64,000 nt of DNA from a bacterium (GCA_963693055.1 OY843751.1:3264001-3328000); one strand, 5' to 3'; shown: positions 49,892-64,000, numbered from the stretch's first letter. The notes: a model not told the origin generated them from the sequence alone. Numbers and translations: made by a program.

Positions 49892-49922
49892 AAAAAAGGG
49901 AAAGGCTAAAGCCTTTCCCTTT
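49892..49922 (-). terminator. Terminator after hydA1
   Basis: AAAGGGAAAGGC-TTTA-GCCTTTCCCTTT stem plus T-run on the minus strand. Confidence 0.88.
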
Positions 49923-49926
49923 GCAA

Positions 49927-51666
49927 TTATGCTGCGTTTTCTTTATAGATGCTTTTTTTATCATAATGTGTATGAAGCAGTTCATGTGCTTTGTGACCAT
50001 TAGGTTCACCCAGCCATTCTTCATACAATTTCATAACAGCAGGATTCTCATGAGATTTACGGATCTCCATTTTACGGTCTTGCAGATAAATAGCTTCAGC
50101 GCGTTTCTTGCGGATTTCTTCAGAAGTGGGGATCGGTTGACCACCACCACCAATACAACCACCGGGACAAGCCATAATTTCAATAAAATGATATTCAGCT
50201 TCACCGGCTGCAATTTTGTCTAACAATTTACGTGCATTTGCTAAACCGTTAGAAACAGCAGCTTTAACTTTTAAACCGTTCAGGTCTATTTCTGCTTCTT
50301 TAATACCTTCTAAACCTCGAACATCTTTGATCTCTACATCATCAAGTGTCTTTTCGGTAACAATTTCATAAACGGTACGTAATGCAGCTTCCATTACACC
50401 ACCGGTATTACCAAAAATAACAGCAGCACCTGTAGAGATACCCAATGGATCATCGTACTCTTCTTCATGCAGATCAGGTAAATTGATACCAACCTGTTTC
50501 ATCATTACAGCTGCTTCACGTGTGGTCAATACAGCGTCCACATCCTGAAAACCGCTGTCATTCATTTCCGGACGTCCACATTCATATTTCTTGGCAGTAC
50601 AAGGCATGATGGATACACAATAAATATCTTTAGGATCAATGCCATTCTTTTCAGCATAATATGTTTTTGCCAAAGCGCCAAACATCTGCTGTGGAGATTT
50701 ACATGAAGATACATGCGGCAACAAATCAGGATAAAAATGTTCAATAAAATTTATCCAGCCGGGGCTACATGAAGTTAACAATGGCAAAGTGCCGCCATTC
50801 TTTACACGACCCAACAGCTCTGTACCTTCTTCCATAATGGTTAAATCTGCGGTAAAGTCTGTATCAAAAACTTTATCGAATCCCAACATTCTCAAACCAG
50901 TAACAAACTGATTGGTAACCAGAGAACCGGCAGGCATACCAAACATTTCGCCAATTGACGCGCGAACTGCGGGTGCAGTTTGAACAACAACATGTTTTGT
51001 AGGATCATCCAAAGCTGCCCAAACGCGTGCTGTATGATCATTTTCATACAATGCACCAACAGGACAACGATCGATACATTGACCACAGGAAACACAGGCA
51101 ACATCGCCAATGCCTTTACCAAATGGAGTATCAACCCAAACTTCGTATCCACGGCCTTCAAGACCAATTGCGCTAACACTCTGTACCAGTTCACAAGTCT
51201 GGATACAACGGCGGCACAAGATACATTTGGAAGGATCACGAACGATAGCCGCACTGGAAAGGTCCAGTTCACCCTTACGTTCATGATATTCAAAACGATT
51301 TTCACGCAAACCCAATTGTTCTGCGGCATCCTGCAATTCACAGAAATTATTGCGAACACATTCAGTACATTTCATGGGATGACGAGACAATAACAATTCG
51401 AGTGCCATTTTGCGAGAGTCGCGAACTGATTGGGTGCGTGTTGAAACATTCATCCCCTCCTTACATTGCCATGAGCAAGCAGTGCGTAACAAACGATCAC
51501 CTTCAACCTCTACAACACATAAACGACATGCAGATACCGGCGGTAAATCTGGATGATAGCATAAACGGGGGATTTTGATATTTAATTTTTCTGCTGCTTC
51601 TAGAACAGTCGTACCCTTGGGTACTGTTACTGTTTTACCATCTATTGTTAATGTGATATTTTCCAC
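49927..51666 (-). CDS. hydA: [FeFe]-hydrogenase catalytic subunit (group A, HndD/HydA-like), copy 1
   Basis: 2Fe-2S, HxxxCxxC and 2x[4Fe-4S] F-clusters; H-cluster motifs TSCSPGW, MPCTAKKYE and EIMACPGGCIGGGGQP; SHENP small-subunit tail. Confidence 0.96.
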   Translation of the reverse strand: MENITLTIDGKTVTVPKGTTVLEAAEKLNIKIPRLCYHPDLPPVSACRLCVVEVEGDRLLRTACSWQCKEGMNVSTRTQSVRDSRKMALELLLSRHPMKCTECVRNNFCELQDAAEQLGLRENRFEYHERKGELDLSSAAIVRDPSKCILCRRCIQTCELVQSVSAIGLEGRGYEVWVDTPFGKGIGDVACVSCGQCIDRCPVGALYENDHTARVWAALDDPTKHVVVQTAPAVRASIGEMFGMPAGSLVTNQFVTGLRMLGFDKVFDTDFTADLTIMEEGTELLGRVKNGGTLPLLTSCSPGWINFIEHFYPDLLPHVSSCKSPQQMFGALAKTYYAEKNGIDPKDIYCVSIMPCTAKKYECGRPEMNDSGFQDVDAVLTTREAAVMMKQVGINLPDLHEEEYDDPLGISTGAAVIFGNTGGVMEAALRTVYEIVTEKTLDDVEIKDVRGLEGIKEAEIDLNGLKVKAAVSNGLANARKLLDKIAAGEAEYHFIEIMACPGGCIGGGGQPIPTSEEIRKKRAEAIYLQDRKMEIRKSHENPAVMKLYEEWLGEPNGHKAHELLHTHYDKKSIYKENAA

Positions 51667-51718
51667 ATTTAACCTCCATTGTGCGTATTATAACGTTAAA
51701 CTCAACATACATTATTTG

Positions 51719-53308
51719 TTAAGCCACAGCTTCCGGTTGTTTTACCAATTTTTCGAATTCAGGGCGGAAATGTTTCAGCGTTCCCAGAATAGGTACAGGA
51801 GCAGCCTGACCTAATCCACAGAACGCACCCTTCATCATGACTACTGCAAGTTCTTCAATCATATCGATGTCTTTGATCTCGCCTTTACCACTGCTCAATT
51901 TTTCAAGACGCTCCAATAAACGGCCTGTTCCTTCACGGCAAAGTGTACATTTACCACAAGATTCATGATTAAAGAATTCTACAAAATTGGTTACCAGATC
52001 AACAATTTCCTGATCTTCATCAACAACCAGTAAAGCACCTGAACCCAAACCTGAGCCAATTTCGCGCAAGTTTTCAACTGCCAATGGCAGGTCCAGATGT
52101 TCGGAGGTTAAAATACCACCAGTAGTTCCACCCATTTGGGCGAGTTTAAAGCCTTTACCATTGGGAATGCCCTGACCGATATCATAAATAATTTCTCGCA
52201 GGGTAATGCCCATGGGAACTTCAATAAGGCCGGGATTATTAATATTGCCAACCATGGTAAATACCTTAGTGCCCGGGCTTTTTTCGGTGCCCAGTGACTT
52301 GTACCACTCGGCGCCTTTTAAAACAATCTGAGGAATATTAGCAAGTGTTTCCACGTTATTTACGATTGTCGGTTTTCCCCACAGACCTTCGGAAGGTGGA
52401 AACGGTGGTTTATCACGTGGTTCTCCGCGTTTTCCTTCAATGGATTCTATCAATGCGGTCTCCTCACCACAGATATAAGCGCCGGCCCCTTCACGAATTT
52501 CAAGATCAAATGAAAAATCTGTACCAAACAGATTATCACCCAGTAATCCGTTTTCTTTAGCCTGATCGATAGCGCGCTGCATCCGATCGATGGACATGCG
52601 GTATTCACCACGAATATAAACATAACCTTTGGTTGCACCCACTGCAAAACCTGCAAGTGCCATTCCCTCAATAACTGCATGTGGATCGCCTTCAAGGATC
52701 AGACGGTCTTTAAATGTACCCGGCTCACCTTCGTCAGCATTACATACAATGTATTTTTGCTCAGCGGTTTCTTTGGCAGCAAAATCCCATTTCAAGCCAG
52801 TTGGGAAAAATGCACCACCACGTCCCTGCAGGCCGGATTCTTTAACGGTACTGCGTACAGCATCGGGGTCCATTTCGGTTAATGCTTTACCAAATGCTTC
52901 ATATCCGTCATGAGCAATGTATTCATCAATGTTATCAGGATCAATAACACCGGCATTTTTCAATACTACCCGTATTTGTTTTCCAAAACGAGGTGCAGGT
53001 ACACCTGCGGTCTCTGTTTCAGGAATATCAGTATATTGTAAACGATCAACTTTACGACCTTTGATCAGGTGTTCAGAGATGATTTCAGAAACATCTTCAA
53101 CCTTGACACCGGCATAATATACCGCGTCAGGGAAAACAACCATAACAACACCTTTATTATAAATTCCCAAACTACCAGTTTCAACAACACGGACTTCATC
53201 GGCAAGCGCTGCCATTTTCAGTTCGCGCTCCAATGCGTCTTTGACAGAACGGGCGCCCTGGGCAATTGTATGTCCATCCATTGCAATAAGTATGTGAATC
53301 CTATGCAT
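51719..53308 (-). CDS. hydB: NuoF-like diaphorase subunit (HndC/HydB), non-bifurcating type
   Basis: GRGGAFFP, ADEGEPGTFKD, GAGAYICGEET, MGGTTGG and ESCGKCTLCREG; lacks the C-terminal 2x[4Fe-4S] domain; N-terminal Trx-like domain has no Cys. Confidence 0.92.
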   Translation of the reverse strand: MHRIHILIAMDGHTIAQGARSVKDALERELKMAALADEVRVVETGSLGIYNKGVVMVVFPDAVYYAGVKVEDVSEIISEHLIKGRKVDRLQYTDIPETETAGVPAPRFGKQIRVVLKNAGVIDPDNIDEYIAHDGYEAFGKALTEMDPDAVRSTVKESGLQGRGGAFFPTGLKWDFAAKETAEQKYIVCNADEGEPGTFKDRLILEGDPHAVIEGMALAGFAVGATKGYVYIRGEYRMSIDRMQRAIDQAKENGLLGDNLFGTDFSFDLEIREGAGAYICGEETALIESIEGKRGEPRDKPPFPPSEGLWGKPTIVNNVETLANIPQIVLKGAEWYKSLGTEKSPGTKVFTMVGNINNPGLIEVPMGITLREIIYDIGQGIPNGKGFKLAQMGGTTGGILTSEHLDLPLAVENLREIGSGLGSGALLVVDEDQEIVDLVTNFVEFFNHESCGKCTLCREGTGRLLERLEKLSSGKGEIKDIDMIEELAVVMMKGAFCGLGQAAPVPILGTLKHFRPEFEKLVKQPEAVA

Positions 53309-53777
53309 TTGCCTGTCCTTTCATTTTATAGTCTTTTAATATTGCCACTGCTTTTTCCGGAGTAAGATTACCATAAACCTCATCATTGATCATCATAACC
53401 GGTGCAACCGCACAAAGTCCCAAACAGCTTGTAAATTCCAGAGTAAAAAGATTATCGGGAGTGGTTTCATTCATATCAAGACCCAGATATTCTTTAATTT
53501 TTTCCAGAACATCTTTGGAACCTTTAACATGGCAGGGTGCATTGTTGCAGCAACGTACAATATATTTACCTTTATCTTCTGTATTGAACAGACTATAAAA
53601 AGTAGCTACACCATAAATATCTGAAAGTGGTAATTTGGTAGCTTTTGCAACTTGAGTAAGTACGGGTTCAGAGAGGGAACCATACTCTTTTTGAACATCT
53701 TTTAAAATATAAATAAGTGGTGTTTTTGTGTCAGCATAATTTTTGACAATAACATCCACCTTGGTTAAATCTTGCAT
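53301..53777 (-). CDS. hydC: NuoE-like [2Fe-2S] subunit (HndA/HydC)
   Basis: GVATFYSLF, CCNNAPC and SCLGLCAVAP; SD GGAGG before ATG 53777. Confidence 0.93.
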   Translation of the reverse strand: MQDLTKVDVIVKNYADTKTPLIYILKDVQKEYGSLSEPVLTQVAKATKLPLSDIYGVATFYSLFNTEDKGKYIVRCCNNAPCHVKGSKDVLEKIKEYLGLDMNETTPDNLFTLEFTSCLGLCAVAPVMMINDEVYGNLTPEKAVAILKDYKMKGQANA

Positions 53778-53820
53778 TCTCAACCTCCATAGATTGATTT
53801 TCCAGCGTTGCGGGTATCGT

Positions 53821-54183
53821 CTAGTTTAAATTAAATACATATTCCGAAACTACAGTATTGTTCACAATATGTTCTGCAATAATTTTACGAGCTATTTCAG
53901 CATTTACTTTACCATATGTAACGGTAGGTTTGTCTGCCTGAGCAATCTGCAGCATGGGTTCATTATCACAGTAACCCAAACAACCTGTTTGTGTAACAAC
54001 AGCGTCTTTGATACCACGCTTTTCAATTTCATCTAAAATCGCTGACATTGTGTCACGTGAACCTGCGGCGATTCCGCATGTTCCCATGGAAACAATAATG
54101 CGATATTTTGCATCGCTTTCCCGTGCAGCCATCTGAGATTTTGCCTTCTCCTTGATAGCACGGAGATCTGCTAATGTTTTCAC
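53821..54183 (-). CDS. Thioredoxin-like [2Fe-2S] ferredoxin (HndB/HydD-like)
   Basis: SMGTCGIAAG and TGCLGYCDNEP; GTG start with SD AGGAGG. Confidence 0.9.
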   Translation of the reverse strand: MKTLADLRAIKEKAKSQMAARESDAKYRIIVSMGTCGIAAGSRDTMSAILDEIEKRGIKDAVVTQTGCLGYCDNEPMLQIAQADKPTVTYGKVNAEIARKIIAEHIVNNTVVSEYVFNLN

Positions 54184-54220
54184 TGCTTTACCTCCTGTTT
54201 GTTTTGTTTATGTTAAATAC

Positions 54221-54345
54221 GAATTAATTCTCATTCTTTTCCCGTTTCGTGTGAATTAATCCAGTTTACTTTCCCGAACAGTGTAACATTTTACTTTTTT
54301 TTTAGAATTGATTCTCTTTCTTTTCCCTAAAAATTGAATCAATTC
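54221..54345. repeat. Tandem imperfect repeat / paired inverted repeats upstream of hydrogenase module 1
   Basis: GAATTAATTCTCATTCTTTTCCC (54221) and GAATTGATTCTCTTTCTTTTCCC (54305), each followed 31-32 bp from its start by a complementary GAAT(T/C)AAT(C/T)C (54253, 54336). Confidence 0.7.
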
Positions 54346-54421
54346 CCTTTTATCTTACAGTGTTTATATTCATTTGTTCACTTTTTTTTACCATCTCCCT
54401 TACTATTTATTATTTACATTA

Positions 54422-54985
54422 TTAATCTAATAAAACTTTACTTTTCACTTGAATACGTTTCAATTCAGATTTGATATGTTTTTTTGCCGGAACAACCATA
54501 TCAAAAAAATCACAATCCTGTTCTGCCATTCTTGCCAAAAGCCAGTATGAATCAAAACATAAAAGTCCCTTGTCCGTACGATGAAGGTAGCAAAAATGCA
54601 CATCAACCGCACCCATTACCAGGTTTACAACTGTACCGGCAATATCTCCCAAAGGTGCCAGGTTTAAGCTATTGAGTTTGAAATCAGCGGTAACAGTTGT
54701 GCCTTTACCCAATTTCGATTTCAAAACCATGCGCCCACCGGCTTCATTTGCTGCCTGGTTCCAGAATGGTAATCCCATTCCTACTGAACGTGTGGTTCTT
54801 GAGGTAACAAAGGGATCAATAACTCTGGCCTGAGTAACGTCATCCATACCTCTGCCATTATCACGTATTGTAACCGCGAGCCTGTTTTGTTTTTGAGATT
54901 CATCAATAAACAAAATCACGCGTGAAGCCTCTGCTTCAATGGAATTTGTAACAATATCCAAAATATTTAATGATAATTCACGCAT
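54422..54985 (-). CDS. Stand-alone HATPase_c (GHKL kinase-like) protein, hydrogenase-associated
   Basis: MRELSLNILDIVTNSIEA, DNGRGM, DPFVTSRTTRSVGMGL and PLGDI; no HisKA. Confidence 0.88.
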   Translation of the reverse strand: MRELSLNILDIVTNSIEAEASRVILFIDESQKQNRLAVTIRDNGRGMDDVTQARVIDPFVTSRTTRSVGMGLPFWNQAANEAGGRMVLKSKLGKGTTVTADFKLNSLNLAPLGDIAGTVVNLVMGAVDVHFCYLHRTDKGLLCFDSYWLLARMAEQDCDFFDMVVPAKKHIKSELKRIQVKSKVLLD

Positions 54986-55747
54986 CTAGCTCATCTCCTC
55001 CGGGAGTTCAAGAGAGGTTTTACGTCCATCTTGCTTTTTGAGTGCTTTACGGATCTCTTCAAAATCCGGTTTTTCGATATAAAACCAGGTATATTTTGAA
55101 CCCAACATACTTATATCGTGGGCATCAGAAGCTGTAATGATACTTTTGGTAGTATTGAGTAAAAAACGATGATTTTTTGAAACATTCTCAAATGGTTGTG
55201 CAATTTCAAGCGCATCGAAAGGCAAGTTGTCGGGAATGAATCCCAAAGAGCGTAACAAACTGTATGATTTCCTATCAATATGCGCAGGATAAATGATACC
55301 ATTCAAATCTACAACCGTACTGGCAACTTTGTAAATATTCAGGCTTACCGGCAGAGCAAACATACGTTTACTTTCCTCAATAATATTTTCCTGAAAATCG
55401 CAAACATATTGTGGACCAAACATGGATGCATCATATTCACCAGGCATCAAATGTTCATATATATAGTTTTGGAAATGCCCGGCAGCATCCAGGTCTGGAA
55501 ATAAACATATAGAGTGCGCATCTTCACGTGTATAGACTTCCATACCAGGAATGACAAAGAGTTTTTTATTTTCAGCGGCCTTAACAACAGCCTGTGTATT
55601 TTCTGCAGAGTTGTGATCCGTAATTGCCAGGATATCCAGTTCATGTTGCAGGGCTGTTTTAACAATATCAACTGGCCCCATTGTCAATTCAGCACAAGGC
55701 GAAAGGACCGTATGAACATGCAAATCCGCTTTGTACCATTGCAGCAT
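54986..55747 (-). CDS. PHP-domain phosphoesterase
   Basis: DLHVHTVLSPC, AITDHN, PAHIDR and SDAH. Confidence 0.92.
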   Translation of the reverse strand: MLQWYKADLHVHTVLSPCAELTMGPVDIVKTALQHELDILAITDHNSAENTQAVVKAAENKKLFVIPGMEVYTREDAHSICLFPDLDAAGHFQNYIYEHLMPGEYDASMFGPQYVCDFQENIIEESKRMFALPVSLNIYKVASTVVDLNGIIYPAHIDRKSYSLLRSLGFIPDNLPFDALEIAQPFENVSKNHRFLLNTTKSIITASDAHDISMLGSKYTWFYIEKPDFEEIRKALKKQDGRKTSLELPEEMS

Positions 55748-55751
55748 TCAC

Positions 55752-56093
55752 CTATCTCCCCCGTAAACCAAAATCGTAAAGTTGGCCTGCGACATCAAAG
55801 GCAGACAGGGTTGTGCTGAAAACAGGTATATTTTTTTCATTGGCTTTTTCAAGGGCTGAATCGTCAGGAACCAATCCTTCGGGAAAGATAACTCCGGCAA
55901 GAGACTTGAAAAATACAATGGCAATAACGTTTTCATGTGTTTGATTGGTGATCCACAATGACCCTTTTAATGCATTGGCCATTGCATCACTAAGGATATC
56001 AGACAAGTAACCAAAATCTACTTCTTTGTTCAGATTTTGTTCACCGCTGAGAACTTTTAAATCTAACTTTTTTACAATCTCTTGCAACACCAT
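55752..56093 (-). CDS. DRTGG-domain protein (HPr kinase N-terminal-like)
   Basis: EIVKKLDL, GYLSDILSDAM and LWITNQTHENVIA. Confidence 0.85.
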   Translation of the reverse strand: MVLQEIVKKLDLKVLSGEQNLNKEVDFGYLSDILSDAMANALKGSLWITNQTHENVIAIVFFKSLAGVIFPEGLVPDDSALEKANEKNIPVFSTTLSAFDVAGQLYDFGLRGR

Positions 56094-56135
56094 GGGATCT
56101 CCCTTCCTCCAAAAAATTCGAACCCATATTATGAA

Positions 56136-57614
56136 TTATTCCATTTTTGAAGCCGGCAGGAACACTGAAAAAGTTGTTCCTTTTTCATACTCGCTTTCAA
56201 TTTCGATCTTGCCGGCATATGCATCTACAATTTTTTTAACAATTGTTAGACCCAATCCGGTACCGGTTATTTCTCGGGTGTGTTCATTCTTGGCCCTGAA
56301 AAAATCTTCAAACAAGCGTTCTTTATCTTCAGGACGCATCCCTATTCCGGTATCGGTAACATCAATTCGAATATAATGACCGTTACGACTGCCGTTTATG
56401 GTTATGGAACCGTTATCACGATTGTATTGAATTGCATTGGATATGACTTGAGTAAATAAACGTTGAAGATCTATCTGGTCAGCATCTACAAACAAATGTT
56501 CAGTAACGCTAATACGAACTTCTAGATTGTGTTCCTTGATGTCATTTTTCATGAAATTGAGTCGTTCTGACAATAGCTCTGAAATATCCTGTCTGTTTAT
56601 TTCGCGTCTTACCTTGCCAGCTTCCAGACGGGTGACATTTAGCAAATCATTGATCAGATTGACAAGTGACTTTGTACGATCTAATGATCTCTTTAAATAA
56701 TTCTCATACAAGTCCGGATCATCGCCCAGAGTCTTGTCTACAACCAGCTCAAGATAGCCTTGTACAGCAGACAATGGTGATTTTAATTCATGTGCAGCCA
56801 TATCTACAAATTGAGAGCGCATGATATCAATTTTTTTCAATTCTGAAATATCACGCAAGACAGACACAACGCCCAACAATTCACCCTTGTCTATGATAGG
56901 TGTTGTATTGGCCATTATCACCAGTTTTGCCGGCGGATGTATAATGATCTCTTGCTGTATCGCTTTAACCTGTTCTTTTTTGCTAAAAATCTCTCGCAGC
57001 TGTTTGTTCAACTCGTCTGGCAGAAACTGCCAAACTTTGTCACCAATTTCAATCTTGCTTTCAACGTTTAATAATTTTATAAACCCGGGATTAAAAAGTA
57101 CAACCTGCCCTTCCTGGTTAATAACCATAATACCATCATCCAAAGAATTGATAATGGTGCGCATGCGCGATTGCTCATGAGCAACCTGCAGCAATCTTCT
57201 TTCCTGCTCTTCACGTAATCTTCTGGCTTCTAAAATATACCAGCGACGTTCAAGAGCACGGTTTACCAGGATTTGCAGTTCATCTGGTTCAAAAGGTTTG
57301 GGTATATACTGGTAGGCACCCAGTCGTGTGGTTTCCACAGCAGTTTCAATAGATGCATATGCAGTAACAATCACACAAATGGCTTCGGGATATACCAGCT
57401 TGATCTCACGTAATACCTGCGTGCCCTCCACATCCGGCATACGTAAATCAATAAAGTACAGATCATACTCGTTGGCAATACCCTTTTCAATACCTTCTGT
57501 ACCGTTTGAGGCCGTATCTACATTATGACCGTACAACTCGAGGATGCGTCTAATGCCTTCACGCATCCCCAATTCATCATCTACGACCAGTATTTTACCT
57601 TGTTCAATCCTCAA
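56136..57614 (-). CDS. Hybrid REC-PAS-histidine kinase
   Basis: ILVVDDE..IDLRMP..YIPKPF; PAS (SLDDGIMVINQEG); AAHELKSPL; DTGIGM and GTGLGL. Confidence 0.93.
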   Translation of the reverse strand: MRIEQGKILVVDDELGMREGIRRILELYGHNVDTASNGTEGIEKGIANEYDLYFIDLRMPDVEGTQVLREIKLVYPEAICVIVTAYASIETAVETTRLGAYQYIPKPFEPDELQILVNRALERRWYILEARRLREEQERRLLQVAHEQSRMRTIINSLDDGIMVINQEGQVVLFNPGFIKLLNVESKIEIGDKVWQFLPDELNKQLREIFSKKEQVKAIQQEIIIHPPAKLVIMANTTPIIDKGELLGVVSVLRDISELKKIDIMRSQFVDMAAHELKSPLSAVQGYLELVVDKTLGDDPDLYENYLKRSLDRTKSLVNLINDLLNVTRLEAGKVRREINRQDISELLSERLNFMKNDIKEHNLEVRISVTEHLFVDADQIDLQRLFTQVISNAIQYNRDNGSITINGSRNGHYIRIDVTDTGIGMRPEDKERLFEDFFRAKNEHTREITGTGLGLTIVKKIVDAYAGKIEIESEYEKGTTFSVFLPASKME

Positions 57615-58008
57615 GTTCTTTAAATATCTTTTCGCTTAAATATTGTACCAAATCTCTGGGAGAAATGGGTTTTTCCAAATAATCATCTGCCTTGATCCAG
57701 TTTTTTTCTTCATCTGTATCGGTAGAAAAACGGATACCGGTATCGTGACCGGCTGAAGTCATGATGATTACACGAACGTTTTCAGTATTGGGCTGTTGTT
57801 TGATTCTGTGGCAAAGTACAAAACCAGAATCAAAATGCTCCATTGCAAGGTCAACAACAACAACAGGCGGATTAAATGCTTTGAATTTTTCCAAACCTTC
57901 CACACTGTCATATGCAGTTTCTACAGTATAGCCTTCTTTTTCTAAAACGGGTTTATAAATATTGATCAAATCTGTATCGTCATCAACCATTAAAATCTTT
58001 TTATCCAT
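57604..58008 (-). CDS. Single-domain response regulator
   Basis: ILMVDDD, VVDLAME and YLEKP; no output domain. Confidence 0.92.
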   Translation of the reverse strand: MDKKILMVDDDTDLINIYKPVLEKEGYTVETAYDSVEGLEKFKAFNPPVVVVDLAMEHFDSGFVLCHRIKQQPNTENVRVIIMTSAGHDTGIRFSTDTDEEKNWIKADDYLEKPISPRDLVQYLSEKIFKELED

Positions 58009-58022
58009 GCGAACATTTTCCT

Positions 58023-58415
58023 TTAATTCTTGGTTTTCAACATTTCAATTACTTTATCATACAACTGTGTATGTGTAACGGGTTTTTCCATAAAGTCATC
58101 TACCGGGTTCCAATTATCATCCGGGCCAATGGTGAGATTAAAATTGTGTTCCTGATTGACACTGGTCATCATCAGGATCAATGTATCGTTAATAGCATCA
58201 TCTTTACGAATCTCACGGGCAACTTCAAAGCCTTCACCCACTTCGGTCATCATGACATCGAGTATTACCAAATCCGGTTTTTCGGATCTAACCAGTTTCA
58301 GTCCATCTGAACCGTTATAGGCCTTGCATACATGAAAACCCTTTGATGTAAAAAAGGCACGGTTCATTTCGACTAGATCAACATCATCATCAATTATTAA
58401 TAATTTATAACTCAT
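58023..58415 (-). CDS. Single-domain response regulator
   Basis: LLIIDDD, ILDVMM and FMEKP; no output domain. Confidence 0.92.
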   Translation of the reverse strand: MSYKLLIIDDDVDLVEMNRAFFTSKGFHVCKAYNGSDGLKLVRSEKPDLVILDVMMTEVGEGFEVAREIRKDDAINDTLILMMTSVNQEHNFNLTIGPDDNWNPVDDFMEKPVTHTQLYDKVIEMLKTKN

Positions 58416-58429
58416 CTTTCCTCTAGAGT

Positions 58430-60442
58430 TTATTGACCTGTTACCGCTTGAACAGTTTCAAGTGCCATTGGTAAATCAATTAAAAAATTGGTTCCATAAC
58501 CGGGTGTGCTCTGCACTTTAATATTACCCTTGTGCATTTTCAAAATTCCATAAGCTATAGGAAGACCTAAACCGGTTCCTTTGCCAATTTGCTTGGTCGT
58601 AAAAAAGGGTGTAAACAGTTTTGCAACATTTTCCTGAGCTATTCCAACTCCAGTGTCTTTAAATTCAAGGCATACACGACTTGCTTCATAATCTGTATTT
58701 GCCGAGATTGTTAACACACCACCATCGGGCATAGCTTCTGCGGCGTTTATTGCAAGATTTAAAAAGACCTGGTAAATCTGATCTCCATCAATATCAACCA
58801 GTGGCAGATTCGGATCAAAATTCACTTTAATCTCTATATTTTGAAATAATTGTTGTTTCTCTATTACAGAAATCATCTTGCCAATTAATTCGGAAAGGTT
58901 ATGCTTTTTCAGCTTTAACTTTCCTTGTCTGGAAAAGTTTAACAATCCGGAAACAATTTTTTGACAGCGTTTTGTCTCTTCCATAATAAACCGCATGTCT
59001 TTGGCCTGAGGATCAGTATCTTCCATTTTTTGCAAAACCAGATGCGCGTAAAGTAAAATGGATCCCAAGGGATTGTTTACTTCGTGAGCCACACCTGCTG
59101 CAAGCTGACCAATGGATGCCAACTTTTCATGCTGGATGAGTTGTTCCTGCGTTTCAGCGAGTTGTTCCAATGAATTTTTCAACTCTTGCTGCATACGCTG
59201 CTGTTTTTCAATAATAAACGGCAAACACATGGCATCTTCTGCAATCCCTTGATAAACAGCAATGGCGTATTCTCTACAACTATCATAACCACAGGATCTG
59301 CAATTGAGCTCGTCAGACGGATCAAATTTTTCAATCTTTTCCAGAATTGAGCGAATCTCTTTGTCCGAGGGTAATGGCATTTTGCATGGTCGTGCTTTAA
59401 ACGTTCTAAACACATCCACATCACGACATTGCTCAAGAGTACTTTTCCATGACATATAATTGGTAGATTGCCGGTGTGATGCTGTATACTGAACAATTTT
59501 TTGTTTTCGTGTAAAATAATTGACCGACTTGTTCATAAAGGGTCCATTTATACACCCTTCACAAAACAACACATCAACCAGACTGGCTTTGATTTCTTGG
59601 TTTTTAAGACAATCAAACAGTTTGAGAATTTGTTGCTTACCTTCGGTCAAAATGACTTCCTTGTTCATAATATCAAGCGGTAAACCAGCGCTGCGCAAAA
59701 AACCTCCGGAAATGGGATACAAACTGCCCAAATACGGATGCGGCGGATCGAAATCCTTCCAAGTACAATTCTCAGGATCAACACCCAGTTTTCTCCAAAG
59801 TTCTTCCAGTTCCTGAAAGGTCAAAACTTCGTCTACTGCATCTTTAACTTCGGCATCTCGTATTTCTGTTTTTTTCGCAGTACAGGGGCCAATAAATACC
59901 GTTTTTACATTGGCACCATATATTTTTTTTACAACCCTGCCCATAGCAATCATGGGTGATACTACCGGGGCAAGGTCGTTAATTAATTCGGGTACATACA
60001 TTTGAATATATGAAAAAATTGCAGGACAAGAGCTTGTTATAAAGGGCCTTTCTTTCTGGTTATTTTTTTCATTAACCAGGTTTAAATAAGCGCGATTTAT
60101 AAGATCAGCGCCAAAGGCCACTTCAACAACATGAGAAAAACCACAAGCGCGTAACGCACCTACCAGCTTGCCGGTTTCCATTTTAGGGTATGCCGCAGGA
60201 AACGATGGCGCCAGCATGGCTACTGTATTCTCTTGCTTGAGTAATTCCAAAGCATTGTCAACTCCATCCAGAACTGCTTTTGCCTTTTGTGTACAAACAG
60301 TAACACAATGACCACAGCTAAGACAGCGTTCTACAATGACTTTGGCTTGCCCGTTTTCAACCTTGATTGCTTTTGCCGGGCATTCCCGAATACAGGAATA
60401 ACAGCGCTTGCATTTTTCTTCTATTGTCCAAACAACTGGCAT
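58430..60442 (-). CDS. hydS: Sensory [FeFe]-hydrogenase (group C, HydS) fused to histidine kinase
   Basis: 2x[4Fe-4S] N-terminus; altered H-cluster motifs TSSCP, GPCTAKKTE and DVLFCEGCING; FeS domain CRSCGYDSC..C; HisKA AHEVNNPL; FTTKQIGKGTGLGL. Confidence 0.9.
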   Translation of the reverse strand: MPVVWTIEEKCKRCYSCIRECPAKAIKVENGQAKVIVERCLSCGHCVTVCTQKAKAVLDGVDNALELLKQENTVAMLAPSFPAAYPKMETGKLVGALRACGFSHVVEVAFGADLINRAYLNLVNEKNNQKERPFITSSCPAIFSYIQMYVPELINDLAPVVSPMIAMGRVVKKIYGANVKTVFIGPCTAKKTEIRDAEVKDAVDEVLTFQELEELWRKLGVDPENCTWKDFDPPHPYLGSLYPISGGFLRSAGLPLDIMNKEVILTEGKQQILKLFDCLKNQEIKASLVDVLFCEGCINGPFMNKSVNYFTRKQKIVQYTASHRQSTNYMSWKSTLEQCRDVDVFRTFKARPCKMPLPSDKEIRSILEKIEKFDPSDELNCRSCGYDSCREYAIAVYQGIAEDAMCLPFIIEKQQRMQQELKNSLEQLAETQEQLIQHEKLASIGQLAAGVAHEVNNPLGSILLYAHLVLQKMEDTDPQAKDMRFIMEETKRCQKIVSGLLNFSRQGKLKLKKHNLSELIGKMISVIEKQQLFQNIEIKVNFDPNLPLVDIDGDQIYQVFLNLAINAAEAMPDGGVLTISANTDYEASRVCLEFKDTGVGIAQENVAKLFTPFFTTKQIGKGTGLGLPIAYGILKMHKGNIKVQSTPGYGTNFLIDLPMALETVQAVTGQ

Positions 60443-60443
60443 A

Positions 60444-62156
60444 TTATTCTACATCTCTTCTCACATAGTGTGTATGCAAGAGCTCATGGGCCTTATGACT
60501 GTTGGGCTCGCCAAGGAACTCTTTATACAATTTCTGAACTGATTCATTCTGATGTGAACAACGCATGGGCAGTTCTTTATCGATCTTGTAAATAGCCTGC
60601 ATACGCTTTTCAGTTTTTTCAGGATCAGAAGGCAATGGCTGACCACCACCATTAATACAACCACCGGGGCATGCCATAACTTCAATAAAGTGATATGGAG
60701 AAGTTCCTTCCTGCATCTGGTCCAGGAAATGGTTTATGTTTTTCAATCCGTTAATAGCGGCAACTTTAAGTTCAATATCATTAATCGTTACAACAGCTTC
60801 TTTAACACCACTCAAGCCACGGATTGGACGAAAATCGATATCATCCATTTCTTTACCCGTAAGTGTAAAATATGCTGTACGCAAAGCGGCTTCCATAACA
60901 CCACCGGCACTACCAAAAATAACCGCAGCACCCGTTGATTCACCCAATGGATCATCAAAGTGTTCTTCTGCCAGGCGGGTAAAATCAATACCTGCGTTTT
61001 TGATCATTCTTGCAAGTTCGCGTGTGGTAACTACTGCATCAACATCCGGGTATTTATCACCCAGTTCAGGACGTTGAGCTTCAAATTTCTTTGCAGTACA
61101 TGGCATTACAGATACTACAAATATATCTTTGGGATCAATACCCATCTTTTGCGCATAAAAAGATTTTACAAGCGCTCCCTGCATTTCATGTGGTGATTTA
61201 CAGGTTGAGAGATTGCCCAACAGATCGGGATAAAAATGTTCAATATATTTAATCCAACCCGGACTACAAGAAGTAATCATGGGAACAGTACCATTATTGG
61301 TTAAACGACCCAACAATTCAGTTGCTTCTTCCATAATGGTAAGATCAGCACTAAAGTTGGTGTCAAAAACAGTGTCAAAGCCCATTGCGCGAAGTGCTGA
61401 AACCATTTGACCTGTAACAATAGTGCCAACCGGCATCCCAAATTCTTCACCCAGTGCAACACGTACAGCCGGTGCAACTTGAACAACAACATGTTTTTCT
61501 TTATTATTAATGGCATCCCAAACAACTTTTTCCTGGCTCTTTTCTTTCAAAGCACCAACTGGACAGTTAACAATACACTGACCACAGTAAACACAAGGAA
61601 CTGTGTTCAAACTGTTATCAAATGCAGGGGTAACATAAGTCTGGAAACCACGGTTTGCAAAATCAATTGCGCCTACATTTTGTACTTCATGACAAACACG
61701 GATACAGCGACCGCAGAGAATACATTTATCGGGATCACGTTCCATTGATGGACTTGCAACATCCTGTTTGTTTGAACGTTTTTCACCTTCATAGCGCAGG
61801 CTGCGAACACCATATTCCGCAGCAAGGGTCTGTAATTCACAATTTCCATTGCGAACACATTGCAAACAATCAGCCGGGTGGTTGGCAATCAACAACTCGA
61901 TGATGGTTTTTCTTGCACGTCTTACCTTGGGTGAATTGGTTTGCACCTTCATTCCGTCAGCTACCGGAAATGCACAGGAAGGTACAAGATTGCGCTGTCC
62001 TTCTACTTCAACAACACATATACGGCATGAACCGGTTGGGCTAAATCCTTTCAGGTAACACAATGTTGGTATTTTAATACCTTCACGGTCAGCTACGGTA
62101 AGGATCGTTTCACCCGGATTGGCCCAGCACTCTTTATCATTTATTATAATTCGCAT
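60444..62156 (-). CDS. hydA: [FeFe]-hydrogenase catalytic subunit (group A3), copy 2
   Basis: F-clusters plus TSCSPGW, MPCTAKKFE and EVMACPGGCINGGGQP. Confidence 0.96.
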   Translation of the reverse strand: MRIIINDKECWANPGETILTVADREGIKIPTLCYLKGFSPTGSCRICVVEVEGQRNLVPSCAFPVADGMKVQTNSPKVRRARKTIIELLIANHPADCLQCVRNGNCELQTLAAEYGVRSLRYEGEKRSNKQDVASPSMERDPDKCILCGRCIRVCHEVQNVGAIDFANRGFQTYVTPAFDNSLNTVPCVYCGQCIVNCPVGALKEKSQEKVVWDAINNKEKHVVVQVAPAVRVALGEEFGMPVGTIVTGQMVSALRAMGFDTVFDTNFSADLTIMEEATELLGRLTNNGTVPMITSCSPGWIKYIEHFYPDLLGNLSTCKSPHEMQGALVKSFYAQKMGIDPKDIFVVSVMPCTAKKFEAQRPELGDKYPDVDAVVTTRELARMIKNAGIDFTRLAEEHFDDPLGESTGAAVIFGSAGGVMEAALRTAYFTLTGKEMDDIDFRPIRGLSGVKEAVVTINDIELKVAAINGLKNINHFLDQMQEGTSPYHFIEVMACPGGCINGGGQPLPSDPEKTEKRMQAIYKIDKELPMRCSHQNESVQKLYKEFLGEPNSHKAHELLHTHYVRRDVE

Positions 62157-62171
62157 ATCTTCCTCAGTTTA

Positions 62172-64000
62172 TTATTCCACATAAATGGCATCAAATTTAC
62201 AATTGGCTCTACACTGATCACAGCGTATACATTTATCATCAATAATGTAATGTGCTTTTTTACGTTCGCCCAGAATAGCATTTTCAGGACATTTTCTAGC
62301 ACAAACTGTACAACCGGTACATTTATCTGTATCAATCTTATATGTCAACAGGTCTCTACAAACACCAGCGCGGCATTTACGATCGTACAAGTGTTCTTCG
62401 TATTCTTCACGGAAATAACGTATTGTGCTCAATACGGGGTTCGCGGCAGTTTGTCCCAATCCACACAACGAAGTATTAATGATCACTTCTGACAGACGTT
62501 CAAGGTATACCATACCCTGGAAACGCAGCAGTGAATCTTCGGCAGATTTTTCAGCACGATGGCTTGATGACAAACGTTCCAGAATTTCCAACAACCGCTT
62601 TGTACCCTCACGACAAGGAATACATTTACCACATGATTCAGACTGGATAAAGGTCATAAAGTATTTGGCCAAATCAACCATACAGGTTGTTTCATCCATT
62701 ACCACCAGACCACCGGAACCCATCATGGCGCCAATGCTTTTGAGTGATTCATAATCTACAGGAGTATCGATAACTGAATCCGGTAATGCACCACCAGAAG
62801 GACCACCAATCTGTACAGCCTTGAATTCTTTACCATCAGGAATACCACCACCAATATCAAAAACGATTTCACGCAGTGTAACACCCATGGGAACTTCAAC
62901 CAGACCTACATTTTTCACTTTACCGGAAAGAGCAAAGATCTTGGTACCTTTAGAATTTTCTGTACCAATCTTTGAATACCAGTCTGCACCATTACGCAAG
63001 AGTACCGGTACATTTGCAAAAGTTTCAACGTTATTAATAATGGTTGGTTTACCAAACAATCCTGCATCTGAAGGATATGGTGGTTTAGGACGCGGCATTC
63101 CGCGTTTACCTTCAATTGAATTCAACAATGCGGTTTCTTCACCACAAACAAATGCGCCCGCACCTTTTTTAATTTTCAGGTTAAAGCTAAATCCTGTTCC
63201 CAGAATATTCTCACCCAACAGGCCATAGGCTTTAGCGTCTTTGATCGTTTTTTCAAGTCTAGCAATTGCAAGTGGATATTCAGCACGGCAGTAAACATAA
63301 CCTTCATCTGCACCAATAGCAAAAGCGGCAATAGCCATACCTTCTACCATCAAATGAGGATCACCTTCCATTACCGCACGATCCATAAATGCACCAGGAT
63401 CGCCTTCATCTGCATTACAAACAACATATTTTTTATCGCCTTTTGACTGGGCAGCCAGTTTCCACTTTAAACCTGTTGGAAAACCACCGCCGCCACGACC
63501 ACGAAGTCCGCCGTCTAAAACTTCTTTAACCACTTTTTCGGAATCCATTTGGGTCAAAGCTTTGGTCAAAGCCTGGTAACCACCATTTGAAATATATTGA
63601 TCAATACTTTCCGGATCAATTACACCACAATTGGCTAAAACTACTTTTTTCTGTTTCTTAAAGAATGGAATATCTTCCATTTTATCAACACTTGACCAAT
63701 CACCTGCATGACCATTTTTATCATATACACCCAGTGTTTTTCCTACAATCACTTGTTTATTAATAATGGTCTGTTCCACAATTTCAGGAACATCCTCAAC
63801 TGTAACTTCACAATAACTGATTCTCGGATAATTGGGTAATTTAATATCAACAATAACTTCACGTGCGCAATATCCAACACAACCAGTAGAGATCAGCTTT
63901 GCATTAATATTTTTTTCATTCAATAATGTTTTAAAAGCATCATATATTTTTTGTGCACCATTTGCTAAACCACAGGTACCCATACCCAGCAGGATAACAG
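62172..64000 (-). CDS. hydB: NuoF-like HydB subunit, electron-bifurcating type (5' end beyond window)
   Basis: GRGGGGFP, ADEGDPGAFMD, GAGAFVCGEET, GGPSGG and C-terminal 2x[4Fe-4S] (CTGCTVCARKCP, CIRCDQCRANC); frame is open past the track's Met (..VILLGMGTCG). Confidence 0.93.
   Translation of the reverse strand, partial: VILLGMGTCGLANGAQKIYDAFKTLLNEKNINAKLISTGCVGYCAREVIVDIKLPNYPRISYCEVTVEDVPEIVEQTIINKQVIVGKTLGVYDKNGHAGDWSSVDKMEDIPFFKKQKKVVLANCGVIDPESIDQYISNGGYQALTKALTQMDSEKVVKEVLDGGLRGRGGGGFPTGLKWKLAAQSKGDKKYVVCNADEGDPGAFMDRAVMEGDPHLMVEGMAIAAFAIGADEGYVYCRAEYPLAIARLEKTIKDAKAYGLLGENILGTGFSFNLKIKKGAGAFVCGEETALLNSIEGKRGMPRPKPPYPSDAGLFGKPTIINNVETFANVPVLLRNGADWYSKIGTENSKGTKIFALSGKVKNVGLVEVPMGVTLREIVFDIGGGIPDGKEFKAVQIGGPSGGALPDSVIDTPVDYESLKSIGAMMGSGGLVVMDETTCMVDLAKYFMTFIQSESCGKCIPCREGTKRLLEILERLSSSHRAEKSAEDSLLRFQGMVYLERLSEVIINTSLCGLGQTAANPVLSTIRYFREEYEEHLYDRKCRAGVCRDLLTYKIDTDKCTGCTVCARKCPENAILGERKKAHYIIDDKCIRCDQCRANCKFDAIYVE

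Follow-up and report, generated by a model that had tools for sequence, protein, structure and literature searches.

Seventeen genes on one strand in an uncultured KSB1 bacterium likely form a single sigma-54 operon that encodes both a predicted bifurcating and a predicted non-bifurcating [FeFe]-hydrogenase, and the signalling relay encoded with them likely co-induces both enzymes via an adjacent NtrC-type activator and does not choose between them. We give this reading a probability of about 0.5. The individual parts are already known; what is new is a variation in how they are put together. The locus lies at the end of the window, a stretch of 64,000 nucleotides (GCA_963693055.1 OY843751.1:3264001-3328000) from a single-contig genome rated 100% complete (G000). 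It runs from RRa through hydA2, and the activator gene adjoins it (Table 1). Two hydA/hydB pairs had been claimed on one strand, and both are on the minus strand where the original prediction had put them. The upstream hydB was located correctly as well, except that its true start is past the window end. Farther upstream on the same strand, also past the window end, are the hydC of module 1 and four further regulatory genes. The seven signalling genes said to separate the modules are present (sensor-kinase fusion, two receivers, receiver-PAS-kinase, DRTGG, PHP and HATPase), the last three being signalling genes by their domains only. The hydD and hydC of module 2 come after these seven.

Table 1. 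Features of the locus in the order of reading. L002 coordinates are window coordinates minus 64000 and describe the head of the locus, past the window end.
Feature	Position	Strand	Remarks
NtrC-family sigma-54 activator, 439 aa	L002 3130-4449	-	REC-AAA+-HTH
Conserved double palindrome, predicted enhancer	L002 3088-3129	-	
Predicted sigma-54 promoter	L002 2980-2994	-	
RRa, atypical receiver	L002 2573-2944	-	
RRb, receiver	L002 2140-2556	-	
REC-PAS-histidine kinase 1	L002 674-2143	-	
HydC1	L002 195-647	-	
HydB1, bifurcating-type flavoprotein subunit, 666 aa	62172..64000 + 172 bases past window end (start L002 172)	-	
HydA1, group A3 catalytic subunit, H-cluster motifs intact	60444..62156	-	NF040763 912 bits, cut-off 765
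Sensor-type H-cluster domain fused to HisKA/HATPase histidine kinase, group C3-like, 670 aa	58430..60442	-	
RRc, stand-alone receiver	58023..58415	-	
RRd, stand-alone receiver	57604..58008	-	
REC-PAS-histidine kinase 2, 492 aa	56136..57614	-	
DRTGG-domain protein	55752..56093	-	
PHP-family phosphoesterase	54986..55747	-	
HATPase_c protein, stand-alone, 187 aa	54422..54985	-	
HydD, thioredoxin-like, three Cys	53821..54183	-	
HydC2, NuoE-like	53301..53783	-	
HydB2, non-bifurcating-type flavoprotein subunit, 529 aa, without ferredoxin-branch ligands	51719..53308	-	
HydA2, group A3 catalytic subunit, H-cluster motifs intact	49927..51666	-	NF040763 899 bits
Predicted intrinsic terminator, 12-bp stem and U run, directly 3' of hydA2	49895..49922	-	

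The assignment of the two enzymes follows from their flavoprotein subunits. HydB1 carries the whole motif set described for it beforehand (DPGAFM, GAGAFVC, GGPSG, N-terminal Cys and a C-terminal 2x[4Fe-4S] domain), with PGAFM at position 259, GAFVC at 339 and GGPSG at 456. All ligands of the ferredoxin branch are in place: Cys67/98/102 of the N-terminal [2Fe-2S] cluster, spaced identically to the 8OH5 and 9N5U chains; Cys497, the His within EHLYDRKC, Cys600 and Cys605 of the Zn/[2Fe-2S] site; and two CxxCxxCxxxC motifs for the two C-terminal [4Fe-4S] clusters. Bifurcating HydB proteins are recognised by A/E232 and M234, F near FMN, and GGPSG in T. maritima numbering (Losey 2020, PMC7311640), and HydB1 and 20 of 20 module-1 orthologs have every one of these. 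Completed by HydC and by a group A3 HydA with intact H-cluster motifs, module 1 is a predicted ferredoxin-plus-NADH (bifurcating) [FeFe]-hydrogenase, in agreement with the type first proposed for it. It resembles HydABC/BfuABC of T. maritima (7P5H), A. woodii (7Q4V) and T. kivui (8A6T; Schut 2022, PMC9304861; Katsyv 2023, PMC10021017) in its HydC-HydB-HydA composition, in AFM/F/GGPSG and in the N-terminal, Zn/[2Fe-2S]-site and B3/B4 ligands, and the TSCSPGW motif of its HydA is that of the active A. woodii HydA. It differs from them in sharing a predicted operon with a second, non-bifurcating enzyme in a genome without detectable hydEFG.

HydB2 also bears out its description (EPGTFK, GAGAYIC, GGTTG, neither N-terminal Cys nor C-terminal ferredoxin domain). 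Its motifs PGTFK, GAYIC and GGTTG are at 196, 276 and 393, its N-terminal thioredoxin-like domain is Cys-less, and its only six Cys (189, 280, 451, 454, 457, 497) are the four B1 ligands plus Cys189 and Cys280. Clusters B2-B5 are thus absent and B1 is kept, leaving predicted sites for FMN, NAD and one [4Fe-4S]. Non-bifurcating HydB proteins have T/S232 and K/S/A234, Y near FMN and no GGPSG (Losey 2020, PMC7311640); HydB2 fits this pattern and lacks every bifurcating feature, as the original prediction held. The motifs recur in 27 of 27 module-2 orthologs (GGTTG in 26 of 26, one row stopping short), and since the contrast is kept in 20 of 20 against 27 of 27 orthologs it is not due to chance. 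The missing C-terminal domain is not diagnostic by itself, because cyanobacterial HoxF bifurcates without it, though with AFM/F/GGPSG and an N-terminal cluster (preprint 10.64898/2026.06.25.734504), and ligands of the Zn/[2Fe-2S] site are still retained in 11 of 26 module-2 orthologs. Owing to an altered Gly-rich flavin loop (GRGGAFFP), NAD and NADP are both possible partners of HydB2; its CGEET motif is retained. We regard module 2 as a predicted NADH-type (non-bifurcating) [FeFe]-hydrogenase.

The label 'Syntrophomonas/Syntrophus type' given to this enzyme holds for its motifs (T/K, Y and the absence of GGPSG are shared with S. wolfei and S. aciditrophicus) but not for its architecture. That architecture is a short HydB of ~410 aa or a HydC-HydB fusion, without hydD: HydB of S. 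wolfei is 43.9 kDa and that of S. aciditrophicus a C-B fusion, whereas HydB2 has 529 aa, a Cys-less thioredoxin-like domain and a separate hydD. In an unrooted tree, built without the named S. wolfei and S. aciditrophicus sequences, HydB2 groups with neither the 415-aa nor the fused 582-aa rows. By length class, gene set and T/K/Y motifs, module 2 is of the long, four-gene, Cloacimonas-like type. The entry for HydB of Ca. Cloacimonas acidaminovorans in Table S2 of Losey 2020 (YP_001741249, 520 aa) gives the same length class, a tetrameric gene set and T/K/Y motifs, and calls it non-bifurcating by prediction; the likeness is one of description, and kinship is a lead only.

Regarding expression, a sigma-54 motif (-24/-12) was found upstream of RRa in 17 of 18 loci, with a near variant in the eighteenth, and in 0 of 289 regions upstream of the other 16 genes, the start of module 2 included. 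The promoter pattern was relaxed after a first scan and only then counted; shuffled controls gave a mean of 0.05 and a maximum of 2 of 18. The enhancer scores 54.8 at the locus and 11.6 at the next best place in the genome, which makes it unique. With rpoN present in G000, all parts of a sigma-54/NtrC system are there: the motif, the palindromic enhancer upstream, the REC-AAA+-HTH activator and rpoN itself. At the other end, hydA2 is followed by the terminator fold (z = -3.85, equalled in 0 of 200 shuffles); the search of the coding strand gave no other intergenic terminator, including none between the modules. In G000, genes from RRa to hydA2 are at most 52 nt apart or overlap, save for 238 nt ahead of hydD. 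The corresponding gap was measured in 23 other loci: 21 fall within 33-144 nt, the closest locus has 234 nt, and in one the genes overlap. In two loci of family f3, 360-471 nt precede the DRTGG gene. Internal sigma-70 promoters are possible in the 238-nt gap and in front of DRTGG in these two relatives, and the count of sigma-70-like promoters (65 observed, 57.6 +/- 8.3 expected) is uninformative. Control by Rex was considered and rejected: the two Rex genes lie elsewhere and none of the best 40 intergenic Rex-like sites is at the locus. From spacing and terminator we infer one transcript over 17 kb that would take in both modules. Since they share a conserved sigma-54-type promoter with an adjacent NtrC-type activator, and a terminator follows the last hydA, both enzymes are likely co-expressed.

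The protein between the modules combines 2x[4Fe-4S], an H domain, an extra Fe-S motif, HisKA and HATPase in one chain, and the H-box His and G boxes of the kinase are retained in 20 of 20. The H-cluster Cys are kept, and the proton-transfer Cys and pocket Met residues are replaced as in TmHydS (TSSCPA, GPCTAKK and LFCEGC against A131/G177/S267, motif positions being read by eye). It is likely a hydrogen-sensing histidine kinase of group C3 type, so that a predicted sensor of the claimed H2-sensing phosphorelay does lie between the modules; the sensory role of group C enzymes has been called putative (PMC8924675).

If both enzymes are made together, the H-cluster kinase would read H2 or redox state and signal via the receivers and REC-PAS kinases to the activator. 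The operon would regulate itself, because the relay output would reach the operon's own activator. H2 pressure would then divide the work between the two enzymes. Below ~60-100 Pa H2, module 2 could vent surplus NADH as H2; above it, module 2 would reverse and take up H2 into the NAD(P) pool, and module 1 would still make H2 from NADH and reduced ferredoxin. With the pair, the cell would no longer be tied to the 1:1 NADH:ferredoxin ratio that a bifurcating enzyme fixes, and finer on/off control, if any, would take place at the protein level. The idea that H2 level governs their use where a genome has both types was already put forward in Losey 2020 (PMC7311640), and passages of PMC7382037 report that a KSB1 species in digesters expressed H2-sensitive and H2-tolerant amino-acid pathways together.

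The H2-pressure switch of the original prediction survives in its two enzyme types, the sensor between them and the conserved layout; its either/or expression finds little room at a locus with one promoter and enhancer for both modules, no sigma-54 promoter before module 2 or the inner genes, and the sole intergenic terminator found after hydA2. We therefore consider it very improbable that the relay turns on module 1 when H2 is high and module 2 when it is very low, even though the sensor sits between the modules, Losey 2020 suggests H2-dependent use where both types coexist, and the wider gaps before hydD in G000 and before DRTGG in the two family-f3 loci could be taken in its favour; in most relatives only a short gap precedes hydD. 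The switch could also act on proteins: both modules would be made, and binding or phosphorylation by receivers or HATPase/PHP/DRTGG would silence module 2 when H2 is high (or module 1 when it is low). At equilibrium via an NADH-only enzyme, the computed NADH/NAD ratio rises from 0.15 at 10 Pa through 1.5 at 100 Pa and ~15 at 1 kPa to 150 at 10 kPa, and the last two values, to which an ungated enzyme would drive the pool, are a reason to gate it. The four stand-alone receivers carry no DNA-binding domain, and a kinase-like ATPase and a phosphoesterase lie immediately before module 2 in 19 of 19 tandem loci. However, the DRTGG-PHP-HATPase set, whole or partial, is not specific to the non-bifurcating enzyme: among 20 other KSB1 stretches, 8 have it next to a bifurcating-type HydB gene (all three genes in 7). 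No receiver fused to an enzyme subunit was found among 292 candidates, a weak test, given no weight here, in which longer proteins were searched with RRd. On balance we find such a protein-level switch unlikely.

Module 2 could, on another view, serve mainly for uptake (H2 to NADH or NADPH), recycling H2 from module 1, a membrane NiFe enzyme or nitrogenase, with no syntrophic vent. Thermodynamics favour uptake above ~60-100 Pa, HydB2 has its altered flavin loop, the ORF starts read in G000 include Rnf-like, Nfn-like, cytochrome bd-like and nif genes, and Losey 2020 (PMC7311640) warns that non-bifurcating enzymes alone do not signal syntrophy. But the characterised S. aciditrophicus enzyme takes NAD, not NADP, and works in both directions, CGEET is retained in HydB2, and nifK is rare in the phylum (3 of 167 genomes), unlike module 2 in the order (42 of 43). 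A mainly uptake role thus appears quite improbable.

Every H2-dependent step needs explaining, because no hydEFG was found in the genome. Searches of G000 gave no match for hydG or hydE at E 0.001, and 21 of 21 hydF candidates fell below the cut-off; two control genomes were above cut-off in each search. The HydE search covered G000, and those for HydF and HydG the whole phylum. Tblastn of G000 with maturases of relatives returned generic GTPase matches only. Just 1 of 19 tandem-bearing genomes has hydF and hydG, and in 55 of 65 HydA-bearing genomes of the phylum neither HydF nor HydG is above cut-off. These absences, together with split reading frames in hydA2 of L004 and hydA1/hydB2 of L041, could mean that the products remain apo-proteins, the operon being either a relic or a diaphorase/electron-transfer system whose 'sensor' reads redox through its Fe-S clusters and not H2. 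The cofactor pocket speaks against this: 24 of 24 positions are invariant in HydA2 (21 rows) and 21 of 24 in HydA1 (17 rows) of genomes without hydG/hydF matches, against 54% and 45% of the whole H domain, among proteins only 68-70% identical at the extremes. G000 retains seven H-cluster-domain genes, and maturase-less archaea, Giardia and Entamoeba are reported, in passages of PMC11216029 (presumably Greening 2024), to have or make active enzymes. We hold the apo-protein reading to be highly improbable. Those organisms, too, have intact H-cluster proteins without hydEFG, closed genomes included. The present case differs in that the organisms are bacteria of one order, the enzymes are large and multimeric, a sensor-activator circuit is dedicated to them, and some close relatives, a minority, do have hydF and hydG.

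Because hydE, hydF and hydG were not found and yet the pockets are kept, the di-iron cofactor would need a route besides HydEFG, by uptake or by unrecognised enzymes. Several importer candidates were set aside. The sole NMT1 match reads as a histidine-biosynthesis gene by its neighbours. Among families recurring in at least 3 of 20 flanking stretches, the transporter-like ones are an Mla-like ABC set and a membrane symporter-like protein (names by eye); they occur in 3 of 20 each, and the genome that has maturases carries both as well. Present in only 2 of 167 genomes, the FecCD importer next to nif is not an order-wide route. It is possible, though we hold it only tentatively, that throughout this KSB1 order a sigma-54 activator is under the control of the H-cluster histidine kinase and induces both hydrogenases together as a two-valve redox buffer, all of these proteins, sensor included, being loaded with a di-iron cofactor not built by HydEFG. 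In such a self-regulating circuit the sensor could report cofactor supply from neighbours besides H2.

Synteny agrees with a conserved unit: of 43 genomes of the order, 19 have both HydB genes on a single contig and arranged as here, and gene order is identical in all 19 tandem loci examined. A sensor ortholog is found in 30 of 43. These counts are over related genomes, which are not independent samples. In four genomes (G097, G090, G088, G118) head elements (activator, RRa, or enhancer with promoter) run directly into the module 2 cassette, and G077 has a sensor remnant only. It is likely that the bifurcating-plus-sensor block is an optional insert into an older non-bifurcating operon, behind its promoter. 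Origin by tandem duplication was rejected: HydB1/HydB2 are 47.6% and HydA1/HydA2 54.6% identical and fall in separate clades, HydB1 and HydB2 doing so in an unrooted tree even with the diagnostic columns dropped. There is no signal of recent horizontal arrival (GC3 of 10 genes 0.25-0.38; genome mean 0.363, sd 0.075).

In R. albus, a ferredoxin-only enzyme is paired with a bifurcating one, the sensors are of PAS type and the genes are regulated separately. The present locus, by contrast, has a histidine kinase as its sensor and a single predicted sigma-54 promoter for the two enzymes. Common to both cases is a putative sensor hydrogenase tied to H2-dependent use of different hydrogenases, as described for Ruminococcus albus HydS and Thermoanaerobacterium hfs (PMC8924675; Losey 2020). 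The order C-B-A followed by a group C3-type H-cluster kinase matches sub-type V BfuABC with the downstream kinase sensor 'BfuT' of Hydrogenedentota and Caldithrix abyssi (PMC11406978, which we take to be Zheng 2024), and it recurs in Bacteroidota loci. Passages of that paper report bifurcating and non-bifurcating sub-types coexisting in a genome; parts 2-4 of its main text describe no joint operon, and a term search of the main text gave no mention of maturases, sigma factors or KSB1. A mostly open-access literature search, extending to part of the Losey 2020 supplement, brought up no joint operon, sigma-54 control of such a locus or maturase-less KSB1 hydrogenases; tandem cases may be listed in further supplements of Losey 2020 and in those of PMC11406978.

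The locus brings together, as one reconstitutable unit, a sensor kinase, the DNA-binding protein that is likely its output, a predicted promoter with a predicted enhancer, and the two types of enzyme. The graded loss of ferredoxin branch and clusters among HydB2 relatives is a natural series for asking which clusters bifurcation needs, and the order, with close relatives that have and lack maturases, is a bacterial test case for H-cluster supply without HydEFG. The locus predicts co-expression, not alternation, which changes the reading of such tandem loci and bears on how anaerobes fit H2 output to H2 pressure and on whether group C hydrogenases truly signal.

Both hydA/hydB pairs and every motif quoted in the original prediction were found in the window sequence, which belongs to an assembly of one contig (6.54 Mb, completeness rating 100%, zero N). 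HydB1 has 666 residues and its start lies 172 bases past the window end, so that the window truncates the gene. On the same strand, hydC1, a REC-PAS kinase, two receivers and an NtrC-family activator lie 5' of hydB1. The genes between the two hydrogenases encode the sensor (an H-cluster protein-histidine kinase fusion), two receivers, a second REC-PAS kinase and DRTGG, PHP and HATPase proteins; hydD and hydC2 follow. HydA1 and HydA2 both score above the NCBIfam cut-off as NADH-dependent group A enzymes. We refer to hydC1-hydB1-hydA1 as module 1 (predicted bifurcating) and to hydD-hydC2-hydB2-hydA2 as module 2 (predicted non-bifurcating). The genome also carries POR-like enzymes, small ferredoxins and Rnf-like and Nfn-like genes, named from motifs or ORF starts, and downstream of the locus a butyrate kinase-like gene is present in 8/10 and a glutamate dehydrogenase-like gene in 7/10 stretches. 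Elsewhere in the genome, a HydC-HydB fusion of 781 aa carries bifurcating motifs, and after it comes a GltD-like subunit of 521 aa that lacks an H domain; this pair is a predicted Bfu/Nfn-like complex.

Three features, A/M rather than T/K, F rather than Y and the GGPSG motif, have been used to tell bifurcating from non-bifurcating beta subunits (Losey 2020, PMC7311640). HydB1 has the A/M, F, GGPSG pattern together with a full set of ferredoxin-branch ligands, while HydB2 has the non-bifurcating T/K, Y pattern and six cysteines only. The contrast, as originally proposed, holds in all 20 module 1 and all 27 module 2 orthologs. The clusters absent from HydB2 are those linked to bifurcation in PMC9304861 and PMC10021017. 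Cyanobacterial HoxF is described, in a 2026 preprint, as bifurcating despite having no C-terminal domain, with the three motifs and the N-terminal cluster kept; HydB2, in contrast, lacks both, and its classification therefore depends on all features jointly. For a fungal enzyme with non-bifurcating features, ferredoxin-independence has been demonstrated (PMC13556243). The Gly-rich flavin loop of HydB2 reads GRGGAFFP instead of GRGGAGFP. The final Gly of GRGGAG is replaced by Phe in all order-level orthologs read and by Tyr in one row of a further alignment, and this loop may influence nucleotide choice. Ligand loss is graded: Bacillota-type rows retain the cysteines of the N-terminus as well as the one at the Zn/[2Fe-2S] site, 11/26 KSB1 orthologs retain the Zn/[2Fe-2S] site alone, and the source genome retains neither. 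An ortholog from G110 is an example with the Zn/[2Fe-2S]-site ligands retained. In Bacteroidota loci (L011-L035), 15/21 rows show a sensor-kinase-adjacent HydB with degenerate flavin/NAD motifs (SYM, ARAFVC, GINSG) that still has the Fe-S ligands of its core and C-terminus, possibly a non-catalytic or altered module.

HydB2 was originally assigned to the Syntrophomonas/Syntrophus type. Its Cys-free N-terminal thioredoxin-like domain and the hydD gene argue against that architecture. In an unrooted tree of 188 HydB/NuoF cores (15/203 rows removed for short matches; no named Syntrophomonas sequence included), HydB2 groups with proteins of 538-560 aa, Firmicutes/Bacillota where named, separately from the rows of 415 aa and the fused rows of 582 aa; HydB1 is placed among bifurcating rows. 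When the diagnostic columns were dropped from a 38-row unrooted tree, likewise with no named Syntrophomonas sequence, the 16 bifurcating rows formed a 100% branch with HydB2 outside it, and the link of HydB2 to Bacillota was no longer settled. In size, HydB2 has its published counterpart in the 520-aa tetrameric subunit predicted for Ca. Cloacimonas.

An ortholog of HydB2 (at least 75% identity) is present in 42 of the 43 genomes of the order, four of these being clearly partial. The predicted conservation of the layout was borne out: both HydB genes lie on a single contig, 10.5-12 kb apart, in 19/43 genomes from three families, most of the remaining assemblies being broken within the locus. 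Gene order is identical in 19/19 loci read, except that RRb (the second stand-alone receiver) and kinase 1 are optional and that one family has a Mur-ligase-like gene. A sensor ortholog in only 30/43 genomes counts against a universal layout, and G077 has no more than a remnant of the sensor. In three relatives (G097, G090, G088) the head of the locus runs directly into the module 2 cassette, and G118, which belongs to another order, likewise has the enhancer and promoter of the locus ahead of this cassette, with module 1 absent. The simplest reading is that a non-bifurcating operon would have received hydC1-hydB1-hydA1-sensor-RRc-RRd-kinase 2 as an insertion 3' of its promoter. The block corresponds to sub-type V of PMC11406978, and a block of this kind is also found alone in Bacteroidota loci. 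In two genomes from other KSB1 families (L104 of G137, L105 of G124), a bifurcating module with a sensor kinase adjoins a short non-bifurcating module (415-417 aa) of A-C-B order on the opposite strand, a second, independent pairing of both enzyme types. Reading frames are split, through assembly error or decay, in hydA2 of L004 and, in L041, in hydA1 as well as at the end of hydB2. The Mur-ligase-like gene, with middle and C-terminal domains only, lies within the accessory cassette of family f4 and some others.

Coordinates of features in the window, in the source genome (G000, contig C1) and in loci of relatives (L numbers)
Feature	Location	Remark
hydB2	window 51719-53308	GRGGAFFP at residues 162-169
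HydC-HydB fusion and GltD-like subunit	G000:C1:2743626-2747536	
nif locus (L133)	G000:C1:313201-325956	
Further H-cluster genes	G000:C1:4390229-4395747; 2480741-2495596; 814390-816549	maturase-less genome
Mur-ligase-like gene	L044:12072-13235; L053:13447-14724; L136, L146, L148	genomes with and without maturases

The original prediction had the two modules used alternately, as an H2-partial-pressure switch. Our results speak against alternate expression: one predicted sigma-54-type promoter stands ahead of both modules and none ahead of the other 16 genes. Specifically, with a pattern loosened following a first scan, the motif is found no more than 150 nt from RRa, the first receiver gene, in 17/18 loci (50-60 nt upstream in 16), the 18th locus having a near variant; of 289 regions upstream of the remaining 16 genes, none contains it (shuffle mean 0.05). 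The same motif with C/A/T after TTG precedes 52 genes of the source genome, including chaperone- and flagellar-like ORFs named by eye. From RRa to hydA2 the intergenic gaps are at most 52 nt, save for 238 nt ahead of hydD, where most relatives have a short gap, and hydA2 is directly followed by a hairpin with a 12-bp stem and a U run (z = -3.85). A conserved double palindrome about 130 nt further upstream of the promoter is single-copy in the genome (54.8 versus 11.6 bits, with a matrix that omits its own genus). It adjoins the NtrC-type gene, and rpoN is in the genome; together with the promoter, these elements give the relay a plausible DNA-binding output, which would cover both modules. The DRTGG, PHP and HATPase genes are not specific to module 2, since all three adjoin bifurcating-type HydB genes in 7/20 other stretches. 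An additional protein-level switch may act above co-expression.

The sensor retains the H-cluster cysteines, with the Cys for proton transfer and the Met residues of the pocket substituted as in TmHydS. We infer that phosphate from the sensor would pass to the receivers and kinases and on to the activator, raising the whole operon. Both enzymes would then be present together and thermodynamics would set their roles. The computed equilibrium NADH/NAD of an NADH-only enzyme is 0.15 at 10 Pa H2, 1.5 at 100 Pa and 150 at 10 kPa, and confurcation could reach about 15 kPa with potentials from the abstract of PMC9304861. Module 2 could thus vent NADH only while partners hold H2 low, and would otherwise take up H2; module 1 would be active in both regimes given reduced ferredoxin. 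A digester KSB1 species has been reported to express H2-sensitive and H2-tolerant amino-acid pathways simultaneously (PMC7382037).

The source genome has seven H-cluster-domain genes. Profile searches of it gave no match to HydG or HydE and no HydF above the cut-off, which two control genomes exceeded in each search; tblastn with the maturases of four relatives gave generic GTPase matches only. None of 27 radical-SAM-like ORFs lies in a HydE/HydG context, judged by HydE and HydG motifs, and no substitute for HydEFG was found in this analysis. Group A HydA occurs in 65/167 genomes of the phylum, with HydG in 10 of these, HydF in 9 and neither in 55, the HydF counts covering the top 10 candidates of each genome and many genomes being incomplete; one of the 19 tandem genomes (G084) has HydG/HydF. 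In related rows from genomes without HydG/HydF matches, the 24 positions chosen to represent the H-cluster pocket are invariant at 24/24 in 21 HydA2 rows and at 21/24 in 17 HydA1 rows, compared with 54% and 45% of H-domain columns. The active HydA of A. woodii has the same Ser in TSCSPGW. Intact hydrogenases without maturases have been reported as a like puzzle for archaea and for some eukaryotes (PMC11216029). HydG is fragmented in G116 (contig C162), by assembly error or decay.

Other H-cluster genes of the source genome include an hfs-like run (Rex, small Fe-S, sensor, phosphatase-like, group B-like), a second sensor kinase ahead of a group 4 (membrane) NiFe cluster that has two Rex-like sites, and a fusion of sensor and chemoreceptor downstream of a sigma-54 motif. 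Hyp-like NiFe maturation genes were found as well. The nif locus runs nifA-like activator, nifH, two PII genes, nifD, nifK and ferredoxin, and directly after these come genes for a putative lipoprotein, a TonB receptor and an ABC importer of the FecCD type. Neither a nifB match nor a nifE/nifN paralog was found in the genome. The binding protein of this importer occurs in the source genome and G085 only, both with nifK; G137 has nifK and a paralog and no match to it. The importer is a candidate for uptake of nitrogenase cofactor or a molybdenum complex.

Based on these results, the two-hydrogenase locus is real and conserved. H2-dependent use of both types inside one genome was already put forward in Losey 2020, and no published report of a joint sigma-54 operon of both types was found in literature listings and in passages of two reviews (PMC8924675, PMC6288185). 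Cofactor supply is the gap that the co-induction model leaves unexplained. The parts are known; what changes is the proposed mechanism, co-induction of the two hydrogenases in place of alternation.
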